DNA from: Escherichia phage LF82-9
Sequence record: PV660452
DNA length: 64,000 nucleotides
Reading direction: 5' to 3' (one strand)
The translations under genes were made by a program, and so were the position numbers. This document shows positions 22,500 to 38,556 of the stretch, in pieces (position 1 is the stretch's first letter; every line of letters starts with the position of its first letter). The notes under the pieces are model-generated. The model searched no databases and was not told where the DNA came from. It saw only the letters and a program-made list of their open reading frames with translations.

Positions 22500-22515
22500 T
22501 GCTAAATGCAAAAAA

Positions 22516-22537
22516 GCCCCAACCTTTCGGAAGGGGC
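22516..22537 (-). terminator. Intrinsic terminator (GCCCC...GGGGC stem plus U6); member of a 4-copy family
   Basis: Plus-strand AAAAAGCCCCAACCTTTCGGAAGGGGCTTT. Confidence 0.7.
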
Positions 22538-22542
22538 TTTGA

Positions 22543-23100
22543 TTAGTTTTTGTAATATCGTAAAGGGTTGATATGGAATGAAAGCATTGCGCGTGGAATA
22601 GGACGTCTCAAAAGACTCTTAAGTTTCCAACCACAGTAAACACGCAGATAAAATGTAATACCACCAACCTTAAGATAAGGTATAGCAGCGAATAATCCCC
22701 ATGCAGACTCGTTCCAAACTAAAAGATATCCATGATGTGCTGGGTCAGGAGATCCTGATTTAGTTTCGGCGTTGCCTTTATAGTGCCATTTTGATGAAGC
22801 TTCGCGACCTAAAACATGATACGAAAAATTATATGCTTTGTTGCGCCATAACCAAGCTACGCGTTGAGCATATTTACCTATAACAGGAATTTTACGTATT
22901 TTAGACCAACGTTCAACATGGCCACGGTCACCATCGATAGGATTATCGTAAGTCATCATCCAGTCAAAGCCATAAGGTAGTTTACCGGTTTTTTCACTAT
23001 GGAATGGAACTACAAATGGTGCTAGAATAATTGCTAAAATCGCTGCGATCCAATCTATAGGAACAAGAACAACCCAACTTACATATTTTAAAAATTTCAT
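22543..23100 (-). CDS. Hypothetical membrane protein (185 aa) downstream of rI; late-promoter driven
   Basis: N-terminal transmembrane segment WVVLVPIDWIAAILAIILAPFVV; TATAAATA upstream. Confidence 0.55.
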   Translation of the reverse strand: MKFLKYVSWVVLVPIDWIAAILAIILAPFVVPFHSEKTGKLPYGFDWMMTYDNPIDGDRGHVERWSKIRKIPVIGKYAQRVAWLWRNKAYNFSYHVLGREASSKWHYKGNAETKSGSPDPAHHGYLLVWNESAWGLFAAIPYLKVGGITFYLRVYCGWKLKSLLRRPIPRAMLSFHINPLRYYKN

Positions 23101-23124
23101 ATATCCTCTCTTAGTTTACAAGGA

Positions 23125-23132
23125 TATTTATA
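23125..23132 (-). promoter_or_regulatory. T4-type late promoter TATAAATA
   Basis: Exact consensus on the minus strand ~25 nt upstream of the start at 23100. Confidence 0.5.
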
Positions 23133-23135
23133 CAA

Positions 23136-23160
23136 AAAGCCCCAACCTTTCGGAAGGGGC
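23136..23160 (-). terminator. Intrinsic terminator (same GCCCC/GGGGC family)
   Basis: AAAAAGCCCCAACCTTTCGGAAGGGGC; U-run on the minus-strand RNA. Confidence 0.7.
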
Positions 23161-23167
23161 TAGTAAA

Positions 23168-23470
23168 TTAGATAGATGTAGGCTCTAATTTTATTTTCAT
23201 GAACTCGGCAAATTGTCTGGCGGTTTTTATGCCTTGTTCATGACATTCAAATGCATCATCACAGGGGCTATTTTTGTAATGCTTTGCCATATACTTATAG
23301 AATTTTTCAGAGTTCTCGACATTTTGAATTTCAAACAAAGTATATACGTTTTTAATCCCTGATTCCATAAAGTTATCAAAGTATGGGTCAATATGTGCAG
23401 TACCAACGATAGGAGTTGTTGCTGCAAAAAACCCCAGCATCGCCATGACAGCTATCGCTCTTAAGGCCAT
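23168..23470 (-). CDS. rI: Lysis-inhibition regulator rI (antiholin)
   Basis: 100 aa; MALRAIAVMAMLGFFAA...DPYFDNFMESGIKNVYTLFE...KNSPCDDAFEC matches T4 RI. Confidence 0.85.
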   Translation of the reverse strand: MALRAIAVMAMLGFFAATTPIVGTAHIDPYFDNFMESGIKNVYTLFEIQNVENSEKFYKYMAKHYKNSPCDDAFECHEQGIKTARQFAEFMKIKLEPTSI

Positions 23471-23482
23471 ATAGGCCTCCTG

Positions 23483-23695
23483 TTAATTTTGGCCAGTATT
23501 TATTTTTCGCCTTTGGACGGCCTTAACATCTGTGAGGTATTTTTCCAGCTTGCGCTTGCGTGTATAATCAGCTTTAGAACCAGTTTGACGGATATCCTCG
23601 TTTAAATGAGAAATAGAATGTCCTAATTCTCTTCGGATTTCATCCAATTGGGTTACAGTAAGATTACGAAGTTGTCTTTCGTTTAATTGCTGCAT
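23483..23695 (-). CDS. Hypothetical protein (70 aa)
   Basis: ORF track. Confidence 0.45.
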
Positions 23696-23722
23696 ATATA
23701 CCTCTTGGTTAGATATTAGTAT

Positions 23723-24304
23723 TTATAACAACCCTGTCAAATCATTCCAATGCTTCCGGCATAATGACACATATCTATCGGTATCACCAATTTCAATTTG
23801 ACTGCCATCTGTAATTGGAAGTCCGTCTTCCGTGACTCTAGCTACCATTGTGGCCTTTTTACCACAATGACAGACACCTTTAAGTTCAACAAGCTTATCG
23901 GCAATAGCCATTAATGCTTGAGAACCTTCAAATAGATTACCTTTAAAATCTGTTCGTAGTCCATATGCCATTACCGGCACATTGTATACGTCAACAATAC
24001 GACTAAGTTGATACACCTTTTCAGTAGTTAAGAACTGAGCTTCGTCAACAAATACGCAGTGAATATCCTTTTGTGCTGCAGCCCATTTATAGAATTCAAA
24101 GATATCCATGTCTTTTGTAATTATATTGGCATCCTGACGAATACCAATACGAGAGACTATTTCACCTTTTGAATTACGAGTATCAATAGCCGGTTTAAGA
24201 ACTAATACACCCATGCCACGTTCTTTATAGTTATGTGCGGCAGTAAGTAATGAAGCAGACTTACCAGCGTTCATAGCGGCATAGGTAAAAATTAAACTAG
24301 CCAT
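23723..24304 (-). CDS. tk: Thymidine kinase
   Basis: 193 aa; P-loop AAMNAGKS, VFVDEAQF, zinc-ribbon cysteines CHCG...CRKH; same length as T4 Tk. Confidence 0.92.
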   Translation of the reverse strand: MASLIFTYAAMNAGKSASLLTAAHNYKERGMGVLVLKPAIDTRNSKGEIVSRIGIRQDANIITKDMDIFEFYKWAAAQKDIHCVFVDEAQFLTTEKVYQLSRIVDVYNVPVMAYGLRTDFKGNLFEGSQALMAIADKLVELKGVCHCGKKATMVARVTEDGLPITDGSQIEIGDTDRYVSLCRKHWNDLTGLL

Positions 24305-24494
24305 AAGAGTCCTTAGTTAAATTTTCTAAATATGTTTCTAAATCATTTTCAGCTTTATTGATAGATTTTACTAATTCGTAGTATGTTTCGGCATCTCCAT
24401 ATTCAGAAGATATTTCAAAAGACAAATCCTTTTCTAAACTAATAATTTCACCAACTAAAAATAATATTTCGTTCTTTTGTTCGCGAGTAATCAT
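24297..24494 (-). CDS. Hypothetical small acidic protein (65 aa)
   Basis: ORF track; coupled overlap. Confidence 0.45.
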   Translation of the reverse strand: MITREQKNEILFLVGEIISLEKDLSFEISSEYGDAETYYELVKSINKAENDLETYLENLTKDSYG

Positions 24495-24682
24495 AATGAA
24501 TTTATATAATCAATAAGTTCTTGCTCTTTATCGTCAAAATCTTTACACAGTTCTTCGTATTCGTCAGTATTAAAAGGACCGCATTCATTACAAACTTTTT
24601 CCAATTCGCTATTTTTATCCATAACTTCGTGGATAAGAGAAAAGAGTTTGTCTTTTTGTTCTTTACTTAAACTCATAACCAT
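24491..24682 (-). CDS. Hypothetical small acidic protein (63 aa)
   Basis: ORF track. Confidence 0.45.
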   Translation of the reverse strand: MVMSLSKEQKDKLFSLIHEVMDKNSELEKVCNECGPFNTDEYEELCKDFDDKEQELIDYINSL

Positions 24683-24900
24683 GTCACCTTTAAACAGTAT
24701 TCTTCTACATGCTGTTTACGACCTTTCTTATCAATAAAGGTATATTCAACGAATGTTCCAATGTAGTCTTTATCGACATCATGTGGACTATTAATTGGAC
24801 ATTTAGTACGACAAATGCGTTCCCATTGACGAATAATTACTGCTTTATTTTTAGGATCAAACGGATGTGGGTAATGCACATTCATAATAATGGTTCCCAA
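24673..24900 (-). CDS. Hypothetical protein (75 aa)
   Basis: ORF track. Confidence 0.45.
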   Translation of the reverse strand: MGTIIMNVHYPHPFDPKNKAVIIRQWERICRTKCPINSPHDVDKDYIGTFVEYTFIDKKGRKQHVEEYCLKVTWL

Positions 24901-25379
24901 TCAACAATCACAATTTCTAGTTTAGTGGAATATGTATCAAGAATTTCTTCAATGATATCCCAGTTTCCACCACCTATACCTGCACCAATTCTTGGCATGT
25001 AAATCACAGGCTTTGCTATCTTATTCTTTCCGAATTTATTTAATTCTATTATACAATTCATTAAAGCAGAGTACTCAAAATTAGGTCCGGGCTCAAACTG
25101 TGTATAAAGATTAAAGCAATAAGCTTTATGGGTCTTAAAATATTTTTCATAAACCGAATAGGAACCGAGTTTAGACTCGTCTCCGAATTCGGTTTGAAGT
25201 TTATCGGCTTCTAAAATTTTTGGATAAGCCTTTGCTAATTGTCCTGCTACACCAGCGCCCATTGTATGAAAACAATTGCACCCATGAGCAATATTATTAC
25301 CTTTAGAAAACAGGGCGACAATATCGCCCTTGATATAGTTTTTAATCACTTGCTGCAAGTCCTCTAGTATAAGAGTCAA
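24882..25379 (-). CDS. Macro-domain protein (ADP-ribose binding/processing), 165 aa
   Basis: Macro signature motifs HGCNCFHTMGAGVAGQ and PRIGAGIGGG. Confidence 0.65.
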   Translation of the reverse strand: MTLILEDLQQVIKNYIKGDIVALFSKGNNIAHGCNCFHTMGAGVAGQLAKAYPKILEADKLQTEFGDESKLGSYSVYEKYFKTHKAYCFNLYTQFEPGPNFEYSALMNCIIELNKFGKNKIAKPVIYMPRIGAGIGGGNWDIIEEILDTYSTKLEIVIVDWEPLL

Positions 25380-25689
25380 CTAGACGGTCCACCATAGAAT
25401 TGCATGCTGCCTTATCTTTAGGTTCCGCCACCGAGCATTCTAATATTTGCCATTTTTTATAGTATCTTTTAATTAAGGTAGACGCCTTGAACCTACTAGA
25501 CGCCCCATCTTTTTCTCCGTCTTTATATGCATATAACAATTTTTGTGAAAAATCTACTTTACACTCTTGACTTTTACCACAATAATCAGACGCCGTTCTG
25601 TTTGTATACTCCGTTACATCAGTATATGTAGTATTAGCAAGAGCGTTAAATGAAACCAAGCCAACTATTAAAGCCAACATTTTGGTCAT
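25342..25689 (-). CDS. Hypothetical secreted protein (115 aa) at the T4 vs position
   Basis: N-terminal signal-peptide-like MTKMLALIVGLVSFNALA; four cysteines. Confidence 0.5.
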   Translation of the reverse strand: MTKMLALIVGLVSFNALANTTYTDVTEYTNRTASDYCGKSQECKVDFSQKLLYAYKDGEKDGASSRFKASTLIKRYYKKWQILECSVAEPKDKAACNSMVDRLVDSYTRGLAASD

Positions 25690-26228
25690 TCTTTTATTTC
25701 CAGTAGTTTATTTGATTTAAGGTAATTAGCCTTTTCTAGGACTTCAGAAGCATATTTACTTCCAGCACTTGTCTTCCATCCAGCATTATATGAGGATATG
25801 GCTTTCCTTATATCCCCGTTATGTATATTTAACCAATAAGAAAATTCGATATAAGCCCATCTTGCTGAATTAGACCGCTTAGATAGCATTTTCTTAATTT
25901 GGGCATCAGTCATATTATAACCAAGCTGGTTAATTCTTGCCCTCATTGTTGGTAGATAATTTTGGAACATTCCATACGCATGGTGACCTTTCTTATCTTT
26001 AAGATTAATACCGGCAGATGATTCCTGCCATAGTATTGCGGCCATTATGTATCCAAGTCCTTTCTTATGCATATTTTCATGCGTTTTAAATTTTCCATCC
26101 TTAGAAAACTGTTCCCCAAACTGATAAGCATAATTCAAGTTATCGAGTTGGACATTACTAAAAGTATGCTCGGAGCTATGTGCTGATAACGAAAGAGCAA
26201 ATAGACCAGCGAGTAGTGCTTTTCTCAT
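25686..26228 (-). CDS. Secreted lytic-transglycosylase-like protein (SLT-domain motifs), 180 aa
   Basis: Signal peptide MRKALLAGLFALSLSAHS; motifs WQESSAG, GMFQ, SYNAG resemble family-1 lytic transglycosylases. Confidence 0.5.
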   Translation of the reverse strand: MRKALLAGLFALSLSAHSSEHTFSNVQLDNLNYAYQFGEQFSKDGKFKTHENMHKKGLGYIMAAILWQESSAGINLKDKKGHHAYGMFQNYLPTMRARINQLGYNMTDAQIKKMLSKRSNSARWAYIEFSYWLNIHNGDIRKAISSYNAGWKTSAGSKYASEVLEKANYLKSNKLLEIKE

Positions 26229-26236
26229 GTTTACCT

Positions 26237-26695
26237 CTAGATTTTAATCACTGCTTTAGAAGCTTTTCCTGGTAGTCGTTTACTGTTAATAATAGCCATT
26301 CTGCATTGAAGAGTCTTCATTTTGAATGCTGGATTTTCGCGACAAACTGTAAGTCCTAACCAAAGATTTCCATCAGTTATTTCTAAACGGCCTGGGCGAT
26401 ATTCGACACCTTCGACAAAATCTTCATCAACATCTGGACGTGCCGGCATTGATAAAAATTCTGCAACTTCTTTAGCATGATTTTTTACTTTATGAAATAA
26501 TTCAAAAACGTAATTCTCATCTATTTCTCTCTGGATGGCACGATCTAAGAGATGTTGAGAATACTTGATATGAAAGCCTGGTAGTCCAAGAGACTTTGCA
26601 GCATCTTTTATACCGGCATTTATTTTGCGGAACTCCGTTTCAAAGATTCGACGGAGTTTATTACGGCGGATAAAAACTTCCGAATTGATAGTCAT
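26237..26695 (-). CDS. regB: RegB sequence-specific endoribonuclease
   Basis: MTINSEVFIRRNKLRR...HLLDRAIQREIDENYVFELFHK...GRLEITDGNLWLG...QCRMAIINSKRLPGKASKAVIK matches T4 RegB; 152 aa. Confidence 0.9.
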   Translation of the reverse strand: MTINSEVFIRRNKLRRIFETEFRKINAGIKDAAKSLGLPGFHIKYSQHLLDRAIQREIDENYVFELFHKVKNHAKEVAEFLSMPARPDVDEDFVEGVEYRPGRLEITDGNLWLGLTVCRENPAFKMKTLQCRMAIINSKRLPGKASKAVIKI

Positions 26696-26723
26696 TTTGA
26701 TTTCTCCTCTAGTTGACAAGTCT

Positions 26724-26752
26724 ATAGTAACACAACTAGAGGAGAAGTAAAC
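26724..26752 (-). promoter_or_regulatory. Early promoter (GTTTAC-N17-TACTAT) inside a 13-bp stem that pairs the regB RBS with the spacer
   Basis: Inverted repeat TCTCCTCTAGTTG / CAACTAGAGGAGA flanking the -10. Confidence 0.6.
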
Positions 26753-27051
26753 TACTCTTTGAAAGGAATTAACTTTTTAACTGCTTTAGATACTTCGTCA
26801 CGAACCTGATGGAAGTTCTTGAGCTGTTCAAGGCGTTGTTCGTAATACGCAATCTCATCTTCTTCAAGACAATCGTCAGCGTCTTCTTTCAGATATGCCT
26901 TGTACTCATTAAAGAGGGCCCATAGGCGGTTCTCAAAGTCATCAAGGCTTTGAATTTTCTTGTGCTTCGGAACAAGGCCAAAAGGATTGCTTTCAGTTAT
27001 GCGTCTAGATGCTTCATAATGAGTTCCAAAGCCTGATAGGATTTGAGCCAT
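26752..27051 (-). CDS. Hypothetical protein (99 aa)
   Basis: ORF track. Confidence 0.5.
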
Positions 27052-27317
27052 TAGTATTTTTCCTCAGGTCGAAATACTGCACGACAGGCCCACATGCTGG
27101 CTTCTTTTAGATGTTGCTTAGCATACTTAAGAGCCTGTACTGCATCCATATCTTCTTTGGTTTGTTGCTCTGTTTCATTTTCTTTCAAGATATATGCTTC
27201 TTCAATCAGAGCATCAAACAACAATCCAAGACGGACTTCTGCATCTTTAATAGCGTTCACTTTACCGATTTTATCGTCGGTATGCGGCTTGTAGCCTTTG
27301 ATGTCTTCAATCGACAT
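27051..27317 (-). CDS. Hypothetical protein (88 aa) at the T4 vs.4 position; possible Acb2-type cyclic-nucleotide sponge, not verified
   Basis: ATG at 27317 with SD GAGGAA; synteny only (regB, vs.3, vs.4 ... glycyl-radical ORF). Confidence 0.4.
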
Positions 27318-27531
27318 AAGGAATTTCCTCATCGGTGACAAGGTCATATTCGACCAATTGGATAGGCTCGTTAATACCATATCCACGTACAGTGATATCG
27401 GTTGTCGGATATTTTCCAGTAATATCACCCATTCTAAATGCTTCAGTGAATGATTGCTCACCTGAGCAACTAAACCAGGCGGCAAAACATTTTAAAACAT
27501 CTTCAGACCCTTCTATAATCAATTTAGCCAT
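27307..27531 (-). CDS. Hypothetical protein (74 aa)
   Basis: ORF track. Confidence 0.45.
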   Translation of the reverse strand: MAKLIIEGSEDVLKCFAAWFSCSGEQSFTEAFRMGDITGKYPTTDITVRGYGINEPIQLVEYDLVTDEEIPYVD

Positions 27532-27893
27532 TATAGACTCTCAGTAAAGGTACGAGCGATAACGTCGCGCTGCTGTTCCGGAGTCAGAGAGTTAAAGCGA
27601 ACTGCATAACCGGATACACGAATGGTCAGCTGAGGATATTTTTCCGGATGCTTAACTGCATCTTCCAGAGTTTCACGACGCAGAACGTTAACGTTCAGGT
27701 GTTGACCACCTTCAATTTTAACTTTAGGTTGATGTTCAATTTCAATTTCACGGGCATGTAAACCGTAGAAAATTTCCGGGTCTACAATAGCGTCTTCTTT
27801 AAAAGTCTTAGAGACGATAATCCGGGCTTGAGTACCATCTTCAAAATAAATAGTGCCTTTATGTACACCTTCAAGAATTTGATATGCTTTCAT
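27531..27893 (-). CDS. Autonomous glycyl-radical cofactor (GrcA/YfiD-like; T4 Y06I-type)
   Basis: C-terminal ~65 aa ...[60 protein letters not shown] carry the RVSGY glycyl-radical motif and match E. coli YfiD/PflB C-termini from memory; N-terminal half unrelated. Confidence 0.8.
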
Positions 27894-27899
27894 ATAACC

Positions 27900-28208
27900 T
27901 CAATTAGAAAATAAATTTATCCAAGTTTTTTCTTTAATCAAAAATGGGTCGGAATTAAACGCCATTAAACTTTGAGTGATTAATCCCTTAAACGGCCCAT
28001 CAATAAATTCCATTTTGAAATGCGGAATACTAGTCATCAACCGTGCATTAGGAGCAGTACAAAGAACCTGCTGCCCCGCGAAAGGACCTTTAGTCAAACT
28101 GTATCGTTTAGGTTTAAAATGGTAAATCTCATAATTTTCTACAAGAGCCCTTTTATTGCATACTGGGCTGTTATAACAATATTCAAAAACTTCAATAGTG
28201 GTCATCAT
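27900..28208 (-). CDS. Hypothetical protein (102 aa)
   Basis: ORF track. Confidence 0.45.
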   Translation of the reverse strand: MMTTIEVFEYCYNSPVCNKRALVENYEIYHFKPKRYSLTKGPFAGQQVLCTAPNARLMTSIPHFKMEFIDGPFKGLITQSLMAFNSDPFLIKEKTWINLFSN

Positions 28209-28745
28209 TGCATTCCAATCACAAAAAATTGAGGACGAGCATTACCGCCGATGCAATATTTGCTTTTGCAACAGTGTTGGACTGTTTTAATATGGACATT
28301 GTAAATCTTATCCATATCAGGAGCTTTAATAGGCTCGTCAATTATGTACAGAATACGAGAAAGCGTTAATCCACGGAATTTAGAACCTTCATTGCCAATA
28401 AAACTACGGACAGAATCGGTAAATAAACGGAATCGAATATCATCGCTAGAATAACGAGAAAATTCTTTTTTTAATGTTGCCAGCAGAAATTTTAGCATAG
28501 GCTGAAGTATTAGAAAGAACAATAACTGTTCCACCATCATACAGCCAATTAGCAGCAAAGTTAGTCACAGCAATTGATTTACCTGATTGTCGGCCGCCGT
28601 CTAAACGAAGTGTACAGTACTGCTTGAGTACGTCTTCAAACGGTGGGATATAACCGTTCTTACAAATTTCTTCTACTCTAGCATCAGAATGGTGTGTAAA
28701 AGCATTCATCAGGGATAGATAAGGTCCAGTTAAAAATGTTCTCAT
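28205..28745 (-). pseudogene. P-loop NTPase gene split by a frameshift at an A7 run (Walker A and Walker B in different frames)
   Basis: Frame 1 (28446..28745) ends ...GGRQSGKSIAV...GNIKKRIFSLF*; frame 2 continues ...EFSRYSSDD...ILYIIDEP...; switch at the T7/A7 homopolymer 28476-28482. Confidence 0.5.
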
Positions 28746-28826
28746 TTAGTTTCTCTTTTAGGTTGGGCCATTCCGTGGCGCATGAATTGTCCATTTCTGT
28801 ATTTACCCCTCTAAGTAATTATGAAT

Positions 28827-28856
28827 ATACTATCACAATTCTAGGAGAAAGTAAAC
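28827..28856 (-). promoter_or_regulatory. Early promoter (GTTTAC-N18-TAGTAT)
   Basis: Minus strand GTTTACTTTCTCCTAGAATTGTGATAGTAT. Confidence 0.5.
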
Positions 28857-28858
28857 TG

Positions 28859-29161
28859 TTATTTACCTTTAATTACTTTAGCTGCTTCGATAGCCGCTTG
28901 CTGAAGGTCATCCATAGACATACCGAATTTAGAAGCAAAGTTATCAATTTTCTTTTCGACAGCATTCAAAGGCTTGGCCTGTTTACCTTCATTAGCGCCA
29001 GGAAGAGCGAGAATACGCTCTTTGTCAATATAAAGGCTTACAAGTTTCTTACGGTCTTTATCGGACAAATCATGAAATGAATGGGCCTTTTTATTTATAG
29101 CGGCTTCTAATTTACCTGCACTCACTCGCGCTTCAGTAATAAATTCTTGATATGTTTTCAT
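28859..29161 (-). CDS. Internal-protein-like (IPII/IPIII-type) with N-terminal capsid-targeting leader, 100 aa
   Basis: N-terminus MKTYQEFITEARVSAGKLEAA resembles the T4 internal-protein leader cleaved by the prohead protease. Confidence 0.65.
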   Translation of the reverse strand: MKTYQEFITEARVSAGKLEAAINKKAHSFHDLSDKDRKKLVSLYIDKERILALPGANEGKQAKPLNAVEKKIDNFASKFGMSMDDLQQAAIEAAKVIKGK

Positions 29162-29192
29162 TTTTTGTTTCCTTGTTTGTTTTGATAGAGTA

Positions 29193-29222
29193 ATTATACC
29201 ATATTAATACTTAAGCGTAAAC
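29193..29222 (-). promoter_or_regulatory. Early promoter (GTTTAC-N18-TATAAT)
   Basis: Minus strand GTTTACGCTTAAGTATTAATATGGTATAATTACTCTATCAAAAC. Confidence 0.6.
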
Positions 29223-29225
29223 AAT

Positions 29226-29486
29226 TTAAGCTTTACCGCCAGAAATAATTCCGAAGTTGTTAAAATCGTATCCAATATCGTCAACATCTACTTTAGGATT
29301 TACTACAACATAAGCAATTTCACTACGTTTTGCATAGGTGTTGATTTCTTTACCATCGCCACCTAAGAAAGAATACCCATTACGTTTTAATGAGCCAAAG
29401 TCTTCGGCATCACCAATGAAAGCTTTAACTTTAAATTTAGGACCTTTGGCATCTGCTTCAATGATAAATTCTTGATACATTTTCAT
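29226..29486 (-). CDS. Internal-protein-like with capsid-targeting leader (MKMYQEFIIEA), 86 aa
   Basis: Leader similarity to T4 internal proteins; body unrelated. Confidence 0.55.
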   Translation of the reverse strand: MKMYQEFIIEADAKGPKFKVKAFIGDAEDFGSLKRNGYSFLGGDGKEINTYAKRSEIAYVVVNPKVDVDDIGYDFNNFGIISGGKA

Positions 29487-29492
29487 TTTTCC

Positions 29493-29906: not shown

Positions 29907-29933
29907 AATTTCCTCCAAGTAGTTGATGAATGT

Positions 29934-29963
29934 ATAGTATCAAAACCCTTGGAGGAAGTAAAC
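29934..29963 (-). promoter_or_regulatory. Early promoter (GTTTAC-N18-TACTAT) with CCTCCAAG/CTTGGAGG stem
   Basis: Inverted repeat pairs the denV RBS region with the promoter spacer. Confidence 0.6.
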
Positions 29964-29964
29964 A

Positions 29965-30246
29965 CTATTTTTCTGAAGCGCCTGAAATATATTTTTCAAG
30001 ACGTTGTTTCATCAGCGAGCCGTTCTTAGCGATTTCTTCCGGTTTATCGCACATACGTAACAAGGCTTCAAGCTTAGCGATATCGCTGGTACGTTCAAAT
30101 TTGCGAGTATCTATCTTACTAGCAAGTTCAGAAATACGTGCTAATAGACTTTCGGCTTCAACCAAAGCTGCACCTAGCTTAGTTGCAAATGTGTCAGTAG
30201 CTTCGTTAAGAATAGATTCTGATAAAAATTCACTATATGTTTTCAT
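29965..30246 (-). CDS. Internal-protein-like with capsid-targeting leader ([11 protein letters not shown]), 93 aa
   Basis: ATG at 30246 overlaps the lysozyme stop (ATGA); leader similarity. Confidence 0.55.
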
Positions 30247-30731
30247 ATATACGCTTTCCAAGTTCCTGTTTTAAATGTTGAGATTACGCGTTTCGCGCGA
30301 TTAGGTGTCTGACGATACCATTTAGATTGGGCGAGATTTACTGCCGCTTCATCCCAACGTTTCTGTTGAAGCATACGAAGAGAATTAGTAAAACCAGCAA
30401 CGCCTGCTACACCCATTTGGAAGACCATATTGACCAATGCACACCGACGAACTGCATCTAAAGAATCATATACCGGTTTAAGTTTAGCATTACCCAAGAT
30501 TCCGCGAACGGCTTTATCGACGTCTTCATTAAATAGCTTTTCAGCCTCATCAAGGGTAATTGTACCGTTGCATTTACGACCGATCATTCTGTCAAGTTCA
30601 GCTTTAGCTACGGCTAAAGACGGGTTCTTTGTTACCAAGTGGCCTATGCCAATCGTCCAAAAGCCTTCAGTGTCTTTGTATAAAGTCAGTCTAAGACCTT
30701 CGTCATTACGAAGCATTTCAAATATATTCAT
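30243..30731 (-). CDS. e: Lysozyme (endolysin) e
   Basis: [32 protein letters not shown]...[22 protein letters not shown] matches T4 lysozyme; SD GGGAGG. Confidence 0.93.
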
Positions 30732-30763: not shown

Positions 30764-30765
30764 AC

Positions 30766-31830: not shown

Positions 31831-31846
31831 TATGTTTTGTTAATCA

Positions 31847-32533
31847 TTACCAGCCTTCCATAGGGAATTCCAGATAAACTTGGGCATTGACGCGAATTTC
31901 ATTGGTAATCTTTTTAACTCGGTCTGTATTACGAGATACACGTCCGAACCAACGCCATCCATTACTAATTGCACGAGAACCAGTGTGCCATGTTTGCCAA
32001 TCAAACTGAAGAAGAGTACGGTCTGGAGCTTCCCATTTCTCTAGTTCACCTTTTTCAATTTTTTCGAGGACTTCTTTGTGCCATTGGCGATAGATAAGTT
32101 CGCCATCAGGAATCTGACTGAACTCTGCAGTTCCTGTTGCAAAATGAGTAGGACACACGTCAGCGTTAACAAGACCAAGAATATGTTCAGACAAATAGCG
32201 AGGATTGTCATAGTCAGGTTGTCCTGCAGTAATAAAATGTTGACCAACCGGAATATCCGGGCGTGGTACATCATCATGGTGATAACCTGGGATAGCAGGG
32301 TACCAACCAGGCATCAGCATGTGGACTCGTGAATCAAATACAACCTGGTCGGTGTTCCAATCATCCGGCAAGTTCATGATGAAGCTGCGAGTAATAGGAC
32401 CGCCGTTATTATAAGCAAATTCTAAACTACAGTTGAAGAACATAGGCTCGTTCTTGATTTTATCATTAGAAATACCGCCGGCAAAACCACCTACTGCACG
32501 AGCTTGACTATTAAACACTTTAGAACTATTCAT
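31847..32533 (-). CDS. Hypothetical protein (228 aa), H/W-rich
   Basis: ORF track; SD GAGGAAAATAAT upstream. Confidence 0.55.
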   Translation of the reverse strand: MNSSKVFNSQARAVGGFAGGISNDKIKNEPMFFNCSLEFAYNNGGPITRSFIMNLPDDWNTDQVVFDSRVHMLMPGWYPAIPGYHHDDVPRPDIPVGQHFITAGQPDYDNPRYLSEHILGLVNADVCPTHFATGTAEFSQIPDGELIYRQWHKEVLEKIEKGELEKWEAPDRTLLQFDWQTWHTGSRAISNGWRWFGRVSRNTDRVKKITNEIRVNAQVYLEFPMEGW

Positions 32534-32534
32534 A

Positions 32535-32840
32535 TTATTTTCCTCGACATTCTTTAATGAAATTTTCTAGATTGGTAGATTCAATAGCTTTTTTACGAGC
32601 TTCTGCATGTTCTTCTTCAGACAATTTACATTTATAATTAACCCAGACGTTATGGTCAAAACTAGTCGTGGCATATAATAACAAAGCCCCGACGAATAAT
32701 AAAAATGGCGATAAGAATACAAAACCAGGAACACCATCCATATCGTAAGCCTTTTGTAATACTGCAACAGAAAGAGCTGCGTAAAAAAGTGATACAAATA
32801 TTGTTAAAAGACCAATTCGGTTGGTTTCTGTTAATTTCAT
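32535..32840 (-). CDS. Hypothetical membrane protein (101 aa) ending in ENFIKECRGK
   Basis: Two hydrophobic helices; shared C-terminal motif. Confidence 0.5.
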   Translation of the reverse strand: MKLTETNRIGLLTIFVSLFYAALSVAVLQKAYDMDGVPGFVFLSPFLLFVGALLLYATTSFDHNVWVNYKCKLSEEEHAEARKKAIESTNLENFIKECRGK

Positions 32841-32868
32841 AATATTCTCCTCATGTTTTAATAGGACT

Positions 32869-32898
32869 ACTATAACATAGTCCTATAATTGTGTAAAC
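32869..32898 (-). promoter_or_regulatory. Early-promoter cassette (GTTTAC; ATAGGACTA/TAGTCCTAT stem)
   Basis: Minus strand GTTTACACAATTATAGGACTATGTTATAGTAGTCCTATT. Confidence 0.5.
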
Positions 32899-32910
32899 AG
32901 TTTTGTGAAA

Positions 32911-33867
32911 TTATTTGAAAGGTTTTACCATATGAAAGTTTTGTTTGAAACGCTTGACGTAATCGTCGTGTCCTAAGCTTTGGTACATACTTACTACTTT
33001 GCTATAATTTTCCCAAGCGAACTCACGGAACCATCCTGATGTGATTGATGTACAGACCTTTTCAAGGGCCATCATAAAACTATCACGTGGATGGATTTCA
33101 AAGTTATTAGGAATCTGAGAACGTTCTAACGCTAGTACACATGATTCTTCGTATACGCCGGCCAATTTGACCATTTCTGGTAATGATTCGAACTTCTCGC
33201 GTGAGGTCATGACTTCAGAACCATCTTTCATATAAAATGTATACGCTGGACGGTCCGTTAGTGCAATGGCTTCGTGAATAGTATCATGGTCATACGTATA
33301 GATGTCATCTTTAAAGAATGCGCTTTTAGAAGTGTCAAGAACTGGGTGAGCATAGTTCAAGGTTTCTTTCTGGCGTTTCAGCATAATTTCATTAAGTTCA
33401 TCGTTCAGTGTAACACCTTTACCACGAAGATACTGAATATGGTTCATAGTCTTTAAAAAGAATGGATTATTTTTCTTGAAACGATGGGACATCTTAATTG
33501 CAAGGCACATCTCAGGAGTTGCCCAGTAAAACCCGTTCAAACGGTCTTTAGTCAAATTTTTCTTGGCGTATTTTAAAAGGTCATAAGAAGACGTGAAATC
33601 TTCAGGAGTGAGTTCACCGACTAATTCACGGACATTAGTGATTGCCGGAACAATATATGCTTCAAAATGAGTTTCGCGCCCATTATGGAAGCATTTGAAA
33701 ACTTGGACATCAGGGTTATCTTGGTGAACATATACACCCATCATTTGATTTTTGAATGCATTCCAAGAACCTTGGTCCGCAATAAAGTCCCAATCACTAT
33801 TTTTAATAGCGCTAGAATCAATAAGACCGTGATAGTGAAGTGCACGAGAACCAATAACTAACATCAT
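32911..33867 (-). CDS. Hypothetical protein (318 aa) with nucleotidyltransferase-like N-terminal motif
   Basis: N-terminus MMLVIGSRALHYHGLIDSSAIKNSDWDFIAD (GS ... SDWDF); spacing longer than canonical, assignment tentative. Confidence 0.5.
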   Translation of the reverse strand: MMLVIGSRALHYHGLIDSSAIKNSDWDFIADQGSWNAFKNQMMGVYVHQDNPDVQVFKCFHNGRETHFEAYIVPAITNVRELVGELTPEDFTSSYDLLKYAKKNLTKDRLNGFYWATPEMCLAIKMSHRFKKNNPFFLKTMNHIQYLRGKGVTLNDELNEIMLKRQKETLNYAHPVLDTSKSAFFKDDIYTYDHDTIHEAIALTDRPAYTFYMKDGSEVMTSREKFESLPEMVKLAGVYEESCVLALERSQIPNNFEIHPRDSFMMALEKVCTSITSGWFREFAWENYSKVVSMYQSLGHDDYVKRFKQNFHMVKPFK

Positions 33868-33895
33868 AATATTTTCCTCGGATTAATTCATTAAC

Positions 33896-34147
33896 TTAAA
33901 TTTCACGACATGCGATATTATATTCATCCCAGAGGTCATCATGTGAAGCCTCTACCAATGGAACGATTGTACCGTTTATGTCTTCATTATAAGGGCAAAT
34001 TGTACAGTGCGCATCTTCGAATCGGATGCCTTTGTGTTCAGATTTTTTATAACGCATATCGAATATCTTTGCAAACTTTTCACGAGTAATGGTTTTACCA
34101 ACCACTTTGGTTCCGATACTTTCGTAATAAATCATTGTGGACTCCAT
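33896..34147 (-). CDS. Hypothetical protein (83 aa)
   Basis: ORF track. Confidence 0.45.
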   Translation of the reverse strand: MESTMIYYESIGTKVVGKTITREKFAKIFDMRYKKSEHKGIRFEDAHCTICPYNEDINGTIVPLVEASHDDLWDEYNIACREI

Positions 34148-34163
34148 TTGTTTTGATAGGACT

Positions 34164-34193
34164 ACTATAACATAGCCCTATCTTGTTGTAAAC
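34164..34193 (-). promoter_or_regulatory. Early-promoter cassette (GTTTAC; ATAGGACTA / TAGCCCTAT stem)
   Basis: Near-duplicate of the cassette at 32869-32898. Confidence 0.5.
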
Positions 34194-34197
34194 TGTT

Positions 34198-34395
34198 TTA
34201 GCAAGAATAACTAGATGATACCCAGCCTTGAACAGTGATACTATTGTGGGATAATGAGATCGCGTCCTGGAGATTCAGACCTGCGTTATCTTCAATCCAT
34301 AATGTAACTTCTTCGCGTTCTTCTGTTGCAATTTGGAACAGGTTTTCCAGAGCAGCTACTGCCGTACGTACAGCACAATCTAATTCACGAGACAT
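34198..34395 (-). CDS. Hypothetical protein (65 aa)
   Basis: ORF track. Confidence 0.4.
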   Translation of the reverse strand: MSRELDCAVRTAVAALENLFQIATEEREEVTLWIEDNAGLNLQDAISLSHNSITVQGWVSSSYSC

Positions 34396-34404
34396 ATGAT
34401 TTCC

Positions 34405-34677
34405 TTAGCATTCCATAGAAGATGCAACCCAACCACCTGATTCGAGGCTGGTGTAATATGAGTGTTGGTTGACAGTGGCCCAATTCGGATTGCCTTGTTC
34501 GGTATAATGCTCAAGTTCTTTTTTCAAGAATCCAGGAGAATAATACGTTCCACCCATACCATAAGCTGGATACAAGTCGAATGTTGTGTTTTGTTTATCA
34601 GCAATTTCTTTGGCAGCCTCAATAGCTGCATAGATTTTTGCTACAGCTTCAGCCAGTTCGGTTTGTTCTTTAGACAT
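34405..34677 (-). CDS. Hypothetical protein (90 aa); paralog of the next gene (shared C-terminus GGWVASSMEC)
   Basis: Both start MSK..., share YYSPG/YYPKG and end WVASS-x-x-C. Confidence 0.5.
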   Translation of the reverse strand: MSKEQTELAEAVAKIYAAIEAAKEIADKQNTTFDLYPAYGMGGTYYSPGFLKKELEHYTEQGNPNWATVNQHSYYTSLESGGWVASSMEC

Positions 34678-34686
34678 AATGATTCC

Positions 34687-34992
34687 TTAGCACAACGCAG
34701 AAGACGAAACCCAAGCACCTTCAGTAATAACGTAACCATTACCTTCACGCTTAACATCGCCACCATTATTTTCAATTTCATCTTTCATCCACTGGGATAC
34801 GATTTCACCCTTAGGATAATAAGTACGACCGCTACCATAATCACCTACAGAAAACGATACAGCGTATTGGTCTGCAATCTTTGTAGCTTCTTCTTCGATA
34901 CGTTCAGCTTGATTCAGAAGTTTATAAATTGCATCTGAAGCGGATTTGGCATCATTAAACTCTGGTACTTTAATTTCAATAATCTTACTCAT
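34687..34992 (-). CDS. Hypothetical protein (101 aa); paralog of the previous gene (C-terminus GAWVASSALC)
   Basis: Shared N- and C-terminal motifs with 34405..34677. Confidence 0.5.
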   Translation of the reverse strand: MSKIIEIKVPEFNDAKSASDAIYKLLNQAERIEEEATKIADQYAVSFSVGDYGSGRTYYPKGEIVSQWMKDEIENNGGDVKREGNGYVITEGAWVSSSALC

Positions 34993-35348
34993 TTTCTACA
35001 TTCCTTAATAAAGTTTTCTATTGTTTCATTTTCACGTCTAGCTAGGAGTTCATTATAACTAATCATTTGAGAAGCGTAAACCTTTTTATTTTTCTTGTTA
35101 TGGTTTATAAAATCGTAGTAAAAATAGACTACAGTACAAAATGATGCGATGGATGCAAAGGCTTGAGTATATCGTAAGTCCTGCCATTGGTCTGTGAATC
35201 CACCGGTGTTCCCTATAAATCCTAACACAACTCCGTCAATAAGAAATCCAACTAATCCAAAGGCAAATCCCATGCCAATACTCATAATAAAAATTAGAAT
35301 GTTCTCACCGAGAGAAGGCCGTACGGTTAAGAGTTGAGGCTTTTGCAT
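34989..35348 (-). CDS. Hypothetical membrane protein (119 aa) ending in ENFIKECRK
   Basis: Two hydrophobic helices; shared C-terminal motif. Confidence 0.5.
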   Translation of the reverse strand: MQKPQLLTVRPSLGENILIFIMSIGMGFAFGLVGFLIDGVVLGFIGNTGGFTDQWQDLRYTQAFASIASFCTVVYFYYDFINHNKKNKKVYASQMISYNELLARRENETIENFIKECRK

Positions 35349-35722
35349 CTTATTTCCTTAACGAATTCCATAGCTTCTTCATATTCATACTTTTTAACAG
35401 CTTCAACATACTGAGCTTGGGCTTTTGCGCACTGAACTTTCCACTCGCGAACTCGAGCTCTGTGATGACGGCCTTGGTGCCAATATCCTGCCCAATTAAT
35501 AGGCATTAATAAAAACGGTACAATAAGTGGTGCGACGAACATTAATGAAAACGCTGCATCAGACGTTATAACTTTATTGGAATCTAAAATAGCTCCTATA
35601 ATCATAAAGATTAAAAATGCTAAAGCTAAAATAGGGCCAAATAGTACTTCGTTTGGGATTAATTTACGTTTGTATTCGTATGCCCAGGGCTTAATTGGCA
35701 TGTACAGGGTTGGCTTTGACAT
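35327..35722 (-). CDS. Hypothetical membrane protein (131 aa) ending in MEFVKEIRC...
   Basis: ORF track 35327..35752 trimmed to ATG at 35722; hydrophobic helices. Confidence 0.45.
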   Translation of the reverse strand: MSKPTLYMPIKPWAYEYKRKLIPNEVLFGPILALAFLIFMIIGAILDSNKVITSDAAFSLMFVAPLIVPFLLMPINWAGYWHQGRHHRARVREWKVQCAKAQAQYVEAVKKYEYEEAMEFVKEIRCKSLNS

Positions 35723-36308
35723 ATTCTCTACATTCCATAATAAATTGCTCAAGGATTAAATTGTTAGTGAAATTAGGACTAACAACCATAGTTTCATAAA
35801 GCGCATCAATAGCACTTAAAGCATCAACTCTTTTAAGCAAAGGCTTGCCTTCATACATAGTTTCAGAATCGATGATTAACGTAAAGTAATATTTTTTATT
35901 ATCGACTAGAACTTCTGTATCGATATAAAACATATTAGACCTCAGAAGCTTATCTCTAAAACCATAATAATCTTCTGAACGTTCGCTGATATATTCCCAT
36001 TCAGTGTTTAAACAACAAACAGACCATGTAGGAGCAACGAAATCAGTGAATCTAATATCATGGTCTGCAACTAGTTTAGCAATAGCTCCGATATCATGAA
36101 TCATAATACCTGGGGCTAATAAAGATTTTCGGCGATTTGCGTATTCAGTTGTCTCATAAGAAGCTGACCAGTACCATTTACGTCCAGTTGCAACATATCG
36201 TAATGAATCAACTAAAGACGTAGGTGGATTTACCTTATCTCGGAACTCTTCGAACATTGAGTCAATATCATTATTTTGGTTTCGCATGTTAACTCCTTTA
36301 TTATCCAA
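35691..36308 (-). CDS. Hypothetical protein (205 aa) ending in EQFIMECREY...
   Basis: ORF track. Confidence 0.55.
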   Translation of the reverse strand: MDNKGVNMRNQNNDIDSMFEEFRDKVNPPTSLVDSLRYVATGRKWYWSASYETTEYANRRKSLLAPGIMIHDIGAIAKLVADHDIRFTDFVAPTWSVCCLNTEWEYISERSEDYYGFRDKLLRSNMFYIDTEVLVDNKKYYFTLIIDSETMYEGKPLLKRVDALSAIDALYETMVVSPNFTNNLILEQFIMECREYVKANPVHAN

Positions 36309-36336
36309 AAGGAGGACCGGAGTCCTCCGTATTATT

Positions 36337-36930
36337 TTATTTCAAAGAGTTAATATATTCTTGTACATCAGCAGAAGTGGTTTCGACACCGGCTGGAGTA
36401 CCATTGAACGTTTCAACACGAGTCAGAGTGTCTTCGATATCAACCTTAGTCAGTGCAGCGATTTCAATTACATCATCGGCCGTAGAGATACCAAGGGCAT
36501 TGGCTGCTCGAGTTTCACGAATGTATTCGAGTTTGATTGCCAGGTTCTGACGAGCATCGTCAAGTTCAACCACCTTACGAGCAATTTCAATTCGCATAGC
36601 GGCATACCCGTCAGCTTTTGTATTAAGTTGTTCGGCAGTTCGACGATACAGAAGACCAAGCTTAGCATGCATGGTAACATCTTGTCCTTCAGCCAGGAGC
36701 TTACGAATTTCACGTTCCTTAGAAGCGGCTTGCTTGTTCTTTTCATTAACAAGTTCGCGAATACGTTTTTCTTCATTAATAGATTTAACAGAAGCCGTTT
36801 TTAGTTCTTTGATCTGGGTAATCAACTTATCTGCAGCTGCGTTATACTGTTCTTCGACAGTCAGATTTTTAGCCATAGCAGTACCCAGTTTAGTGCGGAT
36901 AAATTCAACAAGTTTCTTCAGTGTGTTCAT
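36337..36930 (-). CDS. PspA/IM30-like all-helical coiled-coil protein (197 aa); assignment tentative
   Basis: Length and continuous heptad-rich composition resemble the PspA/Vipp1 family; ATG at 36930 with SD AAAGGTAA. Confidence 0.4.
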
Positions 36931-36971
36931 ATTATTACCTTTCAATTGGTGGTTTATTATCCAATGAGAGC

Positions 36972-37000
36972 ATTATACTCTGCTCTCAAGAGTTTGTAAA
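36972..37000 (-). promoter_or_regulatory. Early promoter (TTTACA-N17-TATAAT inside GAGAGCA/TGCTCTC stem); near-identical to 6869-6905
   Basis: Minus strand TTTACAAACTCTTGAGAGCAGAGTATAATGCTCTC. Confidence 0.55.
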
Positions 37001-37228
37001 TTATTTTTTAATCAAATTGACATAAAACTTGGCGTCTTCGGGGTGCATGCCTTCGCAGTATTCTTCAACCATGAAATTCTTAACAGCTTCATAAGGACCA
37101 CTCAGATTAAGCTCAGTTGTCCAAAACTTGGAATCTTGGACTGAATCGATACGAACTTCAGGATGACGATTGCGAATAACTTCTTCGGTGTATTCATAAT
37201 CAACGACATCAATACTAACTTTAGCCAT
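37001..37228 (-). CDS. Hypothetical protein (75 aa)
   Basis: ORF track. Confidence 0.45.
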   Translation of the reverse strand: MAKVSIDVVDYEYTEEVIRNRHPEVRIDSVQDSKFWTTELNLSGPYEAVKNFMVEEYCEGMHPEDAKFYVNLIKK

Positions 37229-37258
37229 TTTGTTTCTCCTCTTGATTTGATGTGATTA

Positions 37259-37287
37259 CTATAACATAAACGTACTTAGATGTAAAT
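37259..37287 (-). promoter_or_regulatory. Early promoter (TTTACA-N17-TATAGT)
   Basis: Minus strand TTTACATCTAAGTACGTTTATGTTATAGT. Confidence 0.5.
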
Positions 37288-37441
37288 TATTTCAACGTCA
37301 CCTTTAGCGGCTTTATAACCTTCAGCCCAAGATACAACAGAGTTTTTATCTGAGGATTCAAATTCAGGCATTGGACTTTCACCAATATTCACACAGTATG
37401 TTTCTTCATTTTCATCGAACCAAATAATTAAAGTAGTCATT
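37277..37441 (-). CDS. Hypothetical small protein (54 aa); below ORF-track cutoff
   Basis: Manual translation MTTLIIWFDENEETYCVNIGESPMPEFESSDKNSVVSW... Confidence 0.35.
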
Positions 37442-37470
37442 TTGTTTACTCCTTTGTAGTTGATAAGTCT

Positions 37471-37499
37471 ATAGTATCACCATCCTTGGTGCTTGTACA
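37471..37499 (-). promoter_or_regulatory. Early promoter (TGTACA-N17-TACTAT)
   Basis: Minus strand TGTACAAGCACCAAGGATGGTGATACTATAGACTTATC. Confidence 0.45.
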
Positions 37500-37502
37500 C
37501 AA

Positions 37503-37766
37503 TTATTTCATATTATTGAAATATTCTTCTGCGATTTCGTCGTTATCATGGTAAACTTTAGAAGACAGTTTAACATAACCTTCTGCCGTGAACATGTTAA
37601 TCACAACCTTTACAGTATACCACTGACCGTCTTCATTACCCATTACTGCGTAAGTTTCAAACATCGGATGATCAGGACCAATAACTTTAATATCATTCAC
37701 TGTACGACCGAAATCTTCTGAAACACATTTCATAAAGAAGTTGAACAGTTCGCCGTAATTATCCAT
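37503..37766 (-). CDS. Hypothetical protein (87 aa)
   Basis: ATG at 37766 with SD GGAG. Confidence 0.45.
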   Translation of the reverse strand: MDNYGELFNFFMKCVSEDFGRTVNDIKVIGPDHPMFETYAVMGNEDGQWYTVKVVINMFTAEGYVKLSSKVYHDNDEIAEEYFNNMK

Positions 37767-37809
37767 TTCATTCTCCAAATTGTTTTCTGTATCAGTAGTT
37801 GATAGTTGT

Positions 37810-37839
37810 ATAGTACCATGGAAGAACAGGGATGTAAAC
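37810..37839 (-). promoter_or_regulatory. Early promoter (GTTTAC-N18-TACTAT)
   Basis: Minus strand GTTTACATCCCTGTTCTTCCATGGTACTATACAACTATC. Confidence 0.5.
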
Positions 37840-37975
37840 AGTTTTGTGAAAAAATTTTTTAAAAAGTTTTAGGGAATTCTAGGGTCAGGAGGGACAATTA
37901 AAAGGTAGGATAATATATTATAAAGGGTATAAACTAAATGATGCCCAGAGAGGCCCGGAAAGGCCTAGATACCAA

Positions 37976-38000
37976 AAAGCCCCAACCTTTCGGCTGGGGC
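37976..38000 (-). terminator. Intrinsic terminator (GCCCC/GGGGC family) after the internal-protein gene
   Basis: AAAAGCCCCAACCTTTCGGCTGGGGC; U-run on the minus-strand RNA. Confidence 0.7.
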
Positions 38001-38008
38001 TAAGAATG

Positions 38009-38482
38009 TTATATGATTTGTTTAGCAGACCAAATGCGGTCTTTAATAATTTTTTGGATGTCTTCAACATATTCAAGAGAGTGAACATGTGGGTTATCTT
38101 TGAAACTATAAGCACGAGCTAGCTTTTGGCCTTCAGTTTTGATTATCAAAAGTTCTTTAAGAATTGCTTCATACCTAGAGATAATTCCTTTAGCAATATT
38201 TTTTTCTTGTGCTGCTTTAGGGTCAGCCTTAGGAGCAGGTTTACCTGAAGCCTTTGCAAAAGCAGCTCCAGTAGCAACTAAACTTTTCCAAGCCATACTA
38301 ACTGCATTCCCTGTAAATCCTTCGGCTTTCATATCACGAGCAAATTGGAATCGTGATTCATCGGAAGCATCTTTATAGGAATATTTACCCGCGGCAATGG
38401 CAGCTTTTGCAACAGCTTGAATTTCAGTGCTAGATGCTTCATTTAACACCGCTTCATTTAAAAATTGAGCATATGATTTCAT
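38009..38482 (-). CDS. Internal-protein-like with capsid-targeting leader (MKSYAQFLNEA), 157 aa; late-promoter driven
   Basis: Leader similarity; A/K-rich body; TATAAATA upstream. Confidence 0.6.
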   Translation of the reverse strand: MKSYAQFLNEAVLNEASSTEIQAVAKAAIAAGKYSYKDASDESRFQFARDMKAEGFTGNAVSMAWKSLVATGAAFAKASGKPAPKADPKAAQEKNIAKGIISRYEAILKELLIIKTEGQKLARAYSFKDNPHVHSLEYVEDIQKIIKDRIWSAKQII

Positions 38483-38518
38483 CTTATTTCCTGTTTTAAT
38501 TCGTGGTTTTAATATACT

Positions 38519-38526
38519 TATTTATA
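38519..38526 (-). promoter_or_regulatory. T4-type late promoter TATAAATA
   Basis: Exact consensus on the minus strand ~37 nt upstream of the ATG at 38482. Confidence 0.5.
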
Positions 38527-38529
38527 CTA

Positions 38530-38556
38530 AAAAGCCCCAACCTTTCGGTCGGGGCT
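38530..38556 (-). terminator. Intrinsic terminator (GCCCC/GGGGC family)
   Basis: AAAAAGCCCCAACCTTTCGGTCGGGGC; U-run on the minus-strand RNA. Confidence 0.7.

Follow-up and report, generated by a model that had tools for sequence, protein, structure and literature searches.

Escherichia phage LF82-9 is a Mosigvirus, i.e. a T4-like coliphage, and we analysed a 64,000-nt stretch of its genome (sequence record PV660452), referred to here as the window. The subject of this work is a family of four near-identical hairpins, predicted to be intrinsic terminators, which occupy only two genomic sites. At the first site, downstream of the antiholin gene rI, an open reading frame (ORF) for a DUF7338 protein lies between copies 1 and 2. 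At the second, downstream of the operon encoding tRNAs and the homologs of the T4 stable RNAs rnaD and rnaC, an ORF for an internal head protein (IP157) lies between copies 3 and 4. The genes around both sites all lie on the minus strand, and the order of features is described in that direction. The coordinates are collected in Table 1.

Table 1. Features at and around the two hairpin sites, in positions of the window; terminators and promoters are predictions
Feature	Position	Strand	Details
Terminator copy 1	22510..22537	-	Hairpin 22537->22516, GCCCCUUCC-GAAA-GGUUGGGGC; U6 22515->22510; ends DUF7338 cassette
Terminator copy 2	23134..23160	-	Hairpin 23160->23139, same as copy 1; U5 23138->23134; ends rI
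Terminator copy 3	37974..38000	-	GCCCCAGCC-GAAA-GGUUGGGGC, stem fully paired, then U5; ends internal-protein gene
Terminator copy 4	38529..38555	-	GCCCCGACC-GAAA-GGUUGGGGC, then U5; ends tRNA/rnaD/rnaC operon
Second hairpin AGGCCUUUCCGGGCCU	37951..37966	-	7 nt past copy-3 U-run; 79-nt fold
Late-promoter motif TATAAATA	23125..23132	-	1 nt after copy-2 U-run; predicted to drive DUF7338 ORF
Late-promoter motif TATAAATA	38519..38526	-	2 nt after copy-4 U-run; predicted to drive IP157
Early-type promoter after copy 1	22471..22499	-	GTTTAC 22499->22494, 16-nt spacer, TATAGT 22476->22471; repeat family D9
Cassette ORF 1, 185-aa DUF7338 protein	22543..23100	-	Pfam PF24027, E 8.6e-62; hydrophobic N-terminal segment
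rI antiholin, 100 aa	23168..23470	-	Resident gene upstream of copy 2; Pfam Antiholin E 3e-24 and record annotations
Cassette ORF 2, 157-aa internal head protein (IP157)	38009..38482	-	Leader match; phrog_2280; 100% identical to teqskov
rnaC and rnaD, homologs of T4 stable RNAs	38560..38880	-	Approximate bounds, from alignment with T4
GIY-YIG-like ORF	38844-39398		Pfam T5orf172/MUG113; 290 bp from copy 4
Tequatrovirus-like tract, 4.4 kb	37508..41935	.	95-98% identical to teqskov (pairwise alignments)

The 27-nt pattern AAAAAGCCCCAACCTTTCGGNNGGGGC has exactly four matches in the window (22511-22537, 23134-23160, 37974-38000 and 38529-38555), with no mismatch in any of them when up to three were allowed, and 100 dinucleotide-preserving shuffles gave no match at all. 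An earlier note on this DNA had described four near-identical copies, two of them about 600 bp apart around a membrane-protein gene and the other two bracketing an internal-protein gene. This description holds in each part: copies 1 and 2 are spaced 623 bp apart with the DUF7338 ORF between them, and copies 3 and 4 are spaced 555 bp apart around the 157-aa ORF at 38009-38482. A repeat search (family D2) gives the block common to copies 1 and 2 as 29 nt and that of copies 3 and 4 as 31 nt with two mismatches. Searching the window with the 3′ arm (two mismatches allowed) returned the same four sites and one unrelated chance match on the plus strand, and the loop core CCGAAAGG returned the four sites only, so neither search finds a diverged member of the family in the window. 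The remaining strong terminator-like hairpins in a scan of the window are each unique in sequence. This simple scan fails on copies 1 and 2 because of the internal loop in their stem; this reflects how the scan works and does not count against these copies. The phage records that were sampled carry one to three copies each.

Read on the minus strand, every copy consists of GCCCC-NN-CC, a GAAA tetraloop of the GNRA type, GG-UU-GGGGC and then five or six U residues. Copies 1 and 2 have UU as the variable bases of the 5′ arm; copy 3 has AG and copy 4 has GA. The stems of copies 1 and 2 contain a 2x2 U·U internal loop, with predicted energies of -17.9 and -16.0 kcal/mol; those of copies 3 and 4 (-20.6 and -20.3 kcal/mol) are continuous over 10 pairs, comprising nine motif pairs and a flanking A-U, and their variable positions form an A-U and a G·U pair. 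Against shuffled sequences, the fold z-scores of the four copies range from -3.3 to -4.5 (copy 1, -4.2). All four present a GC-rich hairpin abutting a U-run on the transcribed strand, with stems of 5+2 or 9 pairs, and stand in the sense orientation at the 3′ end of a transcription unit, after three minus-strand ORFs and rnaC; the hairpin begins 5, 7 and 8 nt after the stop codon at copies 1, 2 and 3, respectively. Other annotators have marked the copy-3 equivalent in phage SA20RB as a rho-independent terminator, and an annotated terminator underlies the motif match in phage vB_EcoM_112. A literature search for T4 3′-end mapping or term-seq gave nothing usable for these phages. On this evidence we strongly predict that all four copies act as rho-independent terminators of minus-strand transcription, in agreement with the earlier reading of their sequence.

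The hairpins might instead serve mainly as stabilisers or processing signals of RNA 3′ ends, in maturation of the rnaC precursor or protection of late mRNAs, and not as polymerase stops. The annotated mature 3′ end of rnaC falls some 50 nt short of copy 4, so that processing must occur, and GC stems capped by GNRA loops are good exonuclease barriers. However, the U5-6 that abuts every stem is the signature of intrinsic termination and is unneeded for stabilising, and a predicted promoter restarts transcription right after three of the four copies. We consider it very unlikely that stabilisation is the principal role of the family; the two roles are not mutually exclusive.

The statement that each copy follows a minus-strand gene and precedes a promoter requires some adjustment. 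Copies 1–3 do follow minus-strand protein genes, but copy 4 follows rnaD/rnaC and no protein gene. At the level of motifs, copies 2 and 4 are followed, 1 and 2 nt past the U-run, by TATAAATA, the T4 late-promoter consensus, and copy 1 by an early-type promoter (GTTTACT-N16-TATAGT), but at copy 3 the second hairpin intervenes and the early-type promoter is found at 37838-37810. The TATAAATA octamer occurs nine times in the window (seven times on the minus strand), a number close to chance level overall; the two that abut two of the four terminators are therefore not there by chance. The octamer after the copy-4 equivalent in SA20RB has been annotated by others as a T4 late promoter. The early-type promoter block of 22471-22499 also follows the single terminator of phages that lack the DUF7338 ORF.

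The protein between copies 3 and 4 begins with MKSYAQFLNEA, a leader of about 11 aa ending in Glu-Ala that matches the capsid-targeting leader MKTYQEFIAEA of T4 IPII/IPIII, and on this basis we assign the 157-aa ORF as an internal head protein. It has homologs in 511 records, of which those from Mosigvirus and Dhakavirus share about 72% protein identity, and in the diverged loci examined (L070, L071) IP157 occupies the same rnaC site. Since such diverged homologs are found at one site, the insertion of IP157 is probably old, and T4-type sites without it probably represent deletions between the flanking repeats. DUF7338 at ≥95% identity is restricted to 22 phage records. Pfam and phrog assignment of the two cassette ORFs identified no nuclease or recombinase in either.

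Comparison with relatives shows what has been gained or lost at each site. Phage Mizar aligns to positions 22000-22538 and 23133-24000 of the window, and the two alignments overlap in Mizar by 29 nt, corresponding to one terminator; Mizar thus lacks exactly the DUF7338 cassette and one repeat. Using the Mizar junction as query, for which filled records appear as two pieces spanning 914 bp, we found the rI locus in 154 Mosigvirus records, about 22 of them filled and 132 empty (Mizar and 131 others). The figure for filled sites derives from 22 records covering the filled locus and the 22 records with ≥95% identical DUF7338. These locus statistics come from the GenBank phage collection, as IMG/VR holds too few T-even coliphages. 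At the rnaC site, the T4 genome matches the window at 37503-38003 and 38524-38876; the two pieces overlap by 35 nt, and this overlap is the single T4 terminator (NC_000866 70830-70856). Copy 4 is the ortholog of this T4 terminator, with the same hairpin and flanks, and the T4 site has no cassette; the rnaC site of phage LF82-4 is likewise empty with a single terminator. The second hairpin next to copy 3 has a diverged version, AAGCCTTTCCAGACCT, at the empty T4 site and is therefore part of the resident site; it could act as a tandem terminator or a processing signal. The flanks of empty and filled sites are 95–99% identical, and the difference is precisely the cassette and one terminator. The check proposed in the earlier note, to look for the motif at cassette boundaries in related genomes, has thus come out in its favour, with both pairs bracketing a cassette that is precisely absent from single-terminator relatives.

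The rI-site terminator was compared in L002, L086-L091, L021, L041 and L066; among phages with the empty site, the loop of the orthologous terminator varies (UUAU, UUAC or GAAA). The arms, including the U·U mismatches, are constant, and one phage, mar005P1, has GGUCGGGGC in the 3′ arm. The loop alleles and flank variants of the rI site gave no clear pattern by which insertion could be told from deletion. In phage PTK (L089, 431-460 and 1054-1085, minus-strand view), both rI-site copies carry the 5′ flank ctaatcaaa, which lengthens the direct repeat and suggests gene conversion between its two copies. Two further comparisons were pursued and set aside. T4 has no counterpart of the rI-site copy, as it carries there rI.-1, an unrelated gene without similarity, and the terminator at that place is a different one with a UUCG loop. 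The possibility that the terminator travels with DUF7338 across genera was rejected, since the KP15 and Lw1 loci considered have no DUF7338 homolog.

The rnaC site is a hot spot that occurs in at least five states. It is empty in T4, LF82-4, L046 and L011; it holds IP157 between two family terminators in the window, teqskov, SA20RB, L082 and L034; and it holds IP157 in tandem with a second internal-protein gene, IP187, in L035, L047 and L071. In L074 and LF82-1 it encodes a 126–208-aa protein starting MYT(F/V)NEFLAE, and in phage VR20 a DUF7338 homolog. In every filled state a TATAAATA-like motif stands directly past the U-run. The VR20 cassette has 72% DNA identity to the rI-site cassette of the window, and the alignment begins exactly at the terminator, where 29 of 29 positions are identical; against the empty relative L046, the VR20 insert is bounded by the repeat GGGCTTTTTTATA. 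As DUF7338 is at the rnaC site in VR20 and at the rI site in the window, the same cassette fits either family site. LF82-1, among the closest sequenced relatives, has at this site (L112, 2037-2735) a 208-aa MYTFNEFLAE cassette with a late promoter and a UUCG-loop hairpin at its end.

We think it likely, from these sequence comparisons, that two resident terminators have each been duplicated around an inserted accessory cassette with a late promoter, and that the terminator would act both as an insulator and as a recombination junction. The first resident site would end the rI transcription unit and the second the tRNA/rnaD/rnaC operon. A cassette, made up of TATAAATA, a ribosome-binding site and one ORF, lies directly past the U-run and is followed by the second terminator copy, so that its position between two terminators would insulate it transcriptionally on both sides. 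Each cassette is then flanked by a direct repeat of 29–31 nt, and recombination inside the hairpin, the U-run and the first GTAT bases could insert, delete or swap cassettes or accumulate them in tandem. The exchange may be homologous or copy-choice, with a shared block of 13–36 nt in the examples at hand. Such recombination would account for filled sites with two terminators, for empty sites with one, and for the same cassette at either family site. The suggestion that the hairpins are portable gene-boundary modules and recombination sites is largely upheld by the empty and filled junctions, the cassette swaps at rnaC, the presence of DUF7338 at both sites and the PTK flanks. It needs qualification: there are two sites and not many, and the portable unit would be the late promoter and ORF, with or without a terminator, while the terminator provides the junction.

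Exchange driven by short homology is the simplest reading of these junctions, and a structure- or sequence-specific factor is not required. According to PMC2839356, less than 50 bp of homology suffices for T4-type recombination, and the shared length at the junctions varies from 13 to 36 nt, as homology-driven events predict. The hairpin could alternatively be an attachment-like target of a protein that moves cassettes in an integron-like or homing-like manner, with Mosig's proposed GGGC-binding factor, an enzyme that cuts cruciforms and a nearby homing endonuclease as candidates. Every junction at the rnaC hot spot falls at the hairpin or U-run, junctions keep GGGC-T5-6 even where the rest of the hairpin differs, and copy 4 is 290 bp away from a GIY-YIG-like ORF, in a region where SegB-type homing acts. 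As relayed in PMC2839356, GGGC marked the end of roughly half of the 13 T4 deletions that had been sequenced, in some cases matched by GCCC as an inverted repeat (Mosig 1998). However, neither cassette encodes a nuclease or recombinase and there is no endonuclease gene near the rI site, and we regard a dedicated factor as an unlikely driver of the exchange.

Several points weigh against exchange at duplicated terminators. Termination at the four copies is a prediction, and the U·U form of the hairpin is predicted to be 4–5 kcal/mol weaker than the paired forms. Whether termination takes place, in which direction each event went (insertion or deletion) and by what enzymology the exchange proceeds are points that we infer. 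The cassettes of VR20, LF82-1 and L035 end in a different hairpin, so the downstream repeat is not obligatory, and junction homology goes down to 13 nt. The same hairpin arms are also found in many unrelated phage contigs and bacterial genomes, and similarity alone is therefore no proof of common descent; the likeness of the rI and rnaC hairpins could be partly convergent. Finally, copies 3 and 4 probably entered this genome together through a larger, 4.4-kb exchange and not by a crossover at a terminator.

This last point follows from the mosaic structure of the genome. Positions 22000-24000 are 100% identical to LF82-4, and positions 37500-39000 share 99.6% identity with the Tequatrovirus phage teqskov. 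The backbone on both sides of the tract at 37508-41935 is Mosigvirus, 97.7% identical to LF82-1, and the tract itself holds e.8, IP157 with copies 3 and 4, rnaC/rnaD, the GIY-YIG-like ORF and ten tRNA genes. At the thresholds used, Rfam reported only tRNAs in the rnaC region. The arm allele of T4 is GA, and in LF82-4 both sites show the UU form. Copies 1 and 2 carry the Mosigvirus allele, and the teqskov-like tract explains why copies 3 and 4 have Tequatrovirus alleles (AG and GA arms). The tract suggests an intergeneric exchange, which could have proceeded by ordinary homologous recombination or possibly by conversion driven by a homing endonuclease. Such conversion of exactly the tRNA region has been documented in T4 x T2L crosses (PMC2330249).

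The arms of the stem are not confined to T-even phages. The arms GCCCC..CC/GG..GGGGC followed by T5 occur at ≥80 viral loci in IMG/VR (about 31 distinct contexts) and at ≥120 loci in bacterial genomes of GTDB, across many phyla; two close arm variants reach only 10 and 14 loci in the viral collection. One may thus suppose that the copies are strong terminators that evolved independently under selection for one optimal hairpin design and have no role in recombination, and the rI-site orthologs, with fixed arms and differing loops, do suggest selection on the arms. We nevertheless find it improbable that convergence accounts for the family. Empty and filled sites differ exactly by a cassette and one terminator within nearly identical flanks, one cassette occurs at both family sites, the flanks of PTK are homogenised, and copies 1 and 2 are identical over 29 nt, including bases outside the stem.

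The stem also shows a bias between phage and bacterial collections. For this single stem sequence, we counted the two free bases of the 5′ arm with the 3′ arm fixed, dereplicating by flanks among the matches listed. Among these, TT accounts for 23 of 31 viral contexts and AA for none, while AA is the commonest form in bacteria (37/103) and TT is found in 6 of 103 (Fisher p ~1e-12 versus viral). A dedicated scan of the whole IMG/VR collection found no instance of the fully paired AA form. As RNA, AG and GA are predicted to be as stable as AA (-20.3 to -20.6 kcal/mol), with UU at -16.0; as DNA, AG/GA are at -10 versus -12.5 for AA, and UU is at -7.3 kcal/mol. We treat the bias as an unexplained lead only. 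A rather doubtful extension would be that phages specifically keep an ‘RNA-only’ hairpin (U·U or G·U, never fully complementary) as a docking site for late-promoter cassettes, i.e. integron-like slots that depend on a structure-specific factor or on a hairpin forming in RNA and not as a DNA cruciform.

The closest published systems are the promoter-early and promoter-middle stem-loops (PeSL and PmSL) of T4-like phages, for which cassette insertions and deletions and mini-circles have been reported (Arbiol et al. 2010, PMC2839356; Comeau et al. 2014, PMC4122927). PeSLs are likewise intergenic stem-loop terminators beside a promoter, flanking small non-essential ORFs at insertions or deletions between close relatives, and insertion or excision has been proposed to occur by recombination between flanking copies. 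The family described here shares the predicted intergenic stem-loop terminator; it too flanks ORFs found in some close relatives and missing from others, and empty sites keep one element. It differs in that only the 27–31-nt terminator is conserved, compared with the composite of about 100 bp in PeSLs; the repeat ends at the U-run and does not include a conserved sigma-70-like early promoter. The adjacent promoter is late (TATAAATA) in two copies, early in one and distant in the fourth, and the GC-rich stem with its GNRA loop contrasts with the AGNA-loop-TCNT stems reported for the PST/T4 pair. PeSLs are present in dozens of copies across hyperplastic regions, whereas this family has two sites only. 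Within the published PeSL concept, the family represents a variant with a late promoter and the terminator alone as repeat, and it leaves the general picture from that work unchanged.

Other known systems resemble parts of the arrangement. The T-even internal-protein homology blocks (Repoila et al. 1994, as relayed in PMC2839356) also combine a leader-bearing internal-protein gene with repeated regulatory flanks and are polymorphic. As described there, they have early promoters and weak AT-rich stem-loops at two IP loci only, whereas IP157 has GC-rich terminators and a late promoter. IP157 occupies a third locus, between rnaC and e.8, and the statement relayed in that source that no internal-protein genes exist outside the two IP loci does not hold for it. 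The terminator of the T4 tRNA/species 1 RNA operon, to which copy 4 is orthologous, is present in T4 in one copy with no cassette. A terminator at this place was reportedly characterised in the T4 tRNA-region literature of the 1980s. The morons of lambdoid phages (promoter-gene-terminator) are also self-contained accessory units between resident genes, but their regulatory sequences are not believed to provide the recombination substrate, whereas here the terminator would be the junction.

The comparison offers a sequence-level, multi-genome demonstration of how a terminator of about 30 nt, in its predicted roles, could be both insulator and crossover point for accessory cassettes of T-even phages. 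It also identifies the position downstream of rnaC as a third internal-protein or cassette slot beyond the two classical IP loci. Internal proteins are injected as factors against restriction (PMC12373910), and cassette slots therefore bear on the evolution of host range. The same slots could serve as natural insulated landing pads when T4-like phages are engineered for therapy.

Some further observations concern the neighbourhood of these elements. A total of 553 phage records, Slopekvirus and FelixO1-like phages among them, contain homologs of the DUF7338 membrane protein; some homologs are annotated as holin, and the gene here adjoins the antiholin gene rI. The window has at least four genes of the internal-protein type, and internal-protein leader DNA is common to four genes (29130-29165, 29455-29490, 30215-30250 and 38451-38486). 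GC-rich terminators bracket only the gene at 38009-38482; early promoters flank the other internal-protein genes, which have no GC-rich hairpins and in this agree with the Repoila-type blocks. A separate 63-nt block (repeat family D1) is present in five copies, at 21989-22051, 29161-29223, 32837-32899, 34132-34194 and 37226-37288. It comprises an early promoter (GTTTAC ... TATAGT) and an internal stem-loop, TAGGACTA...TAGTCCTA, and in this it resembles classic T-even promoter cassettes of the PeSL type.

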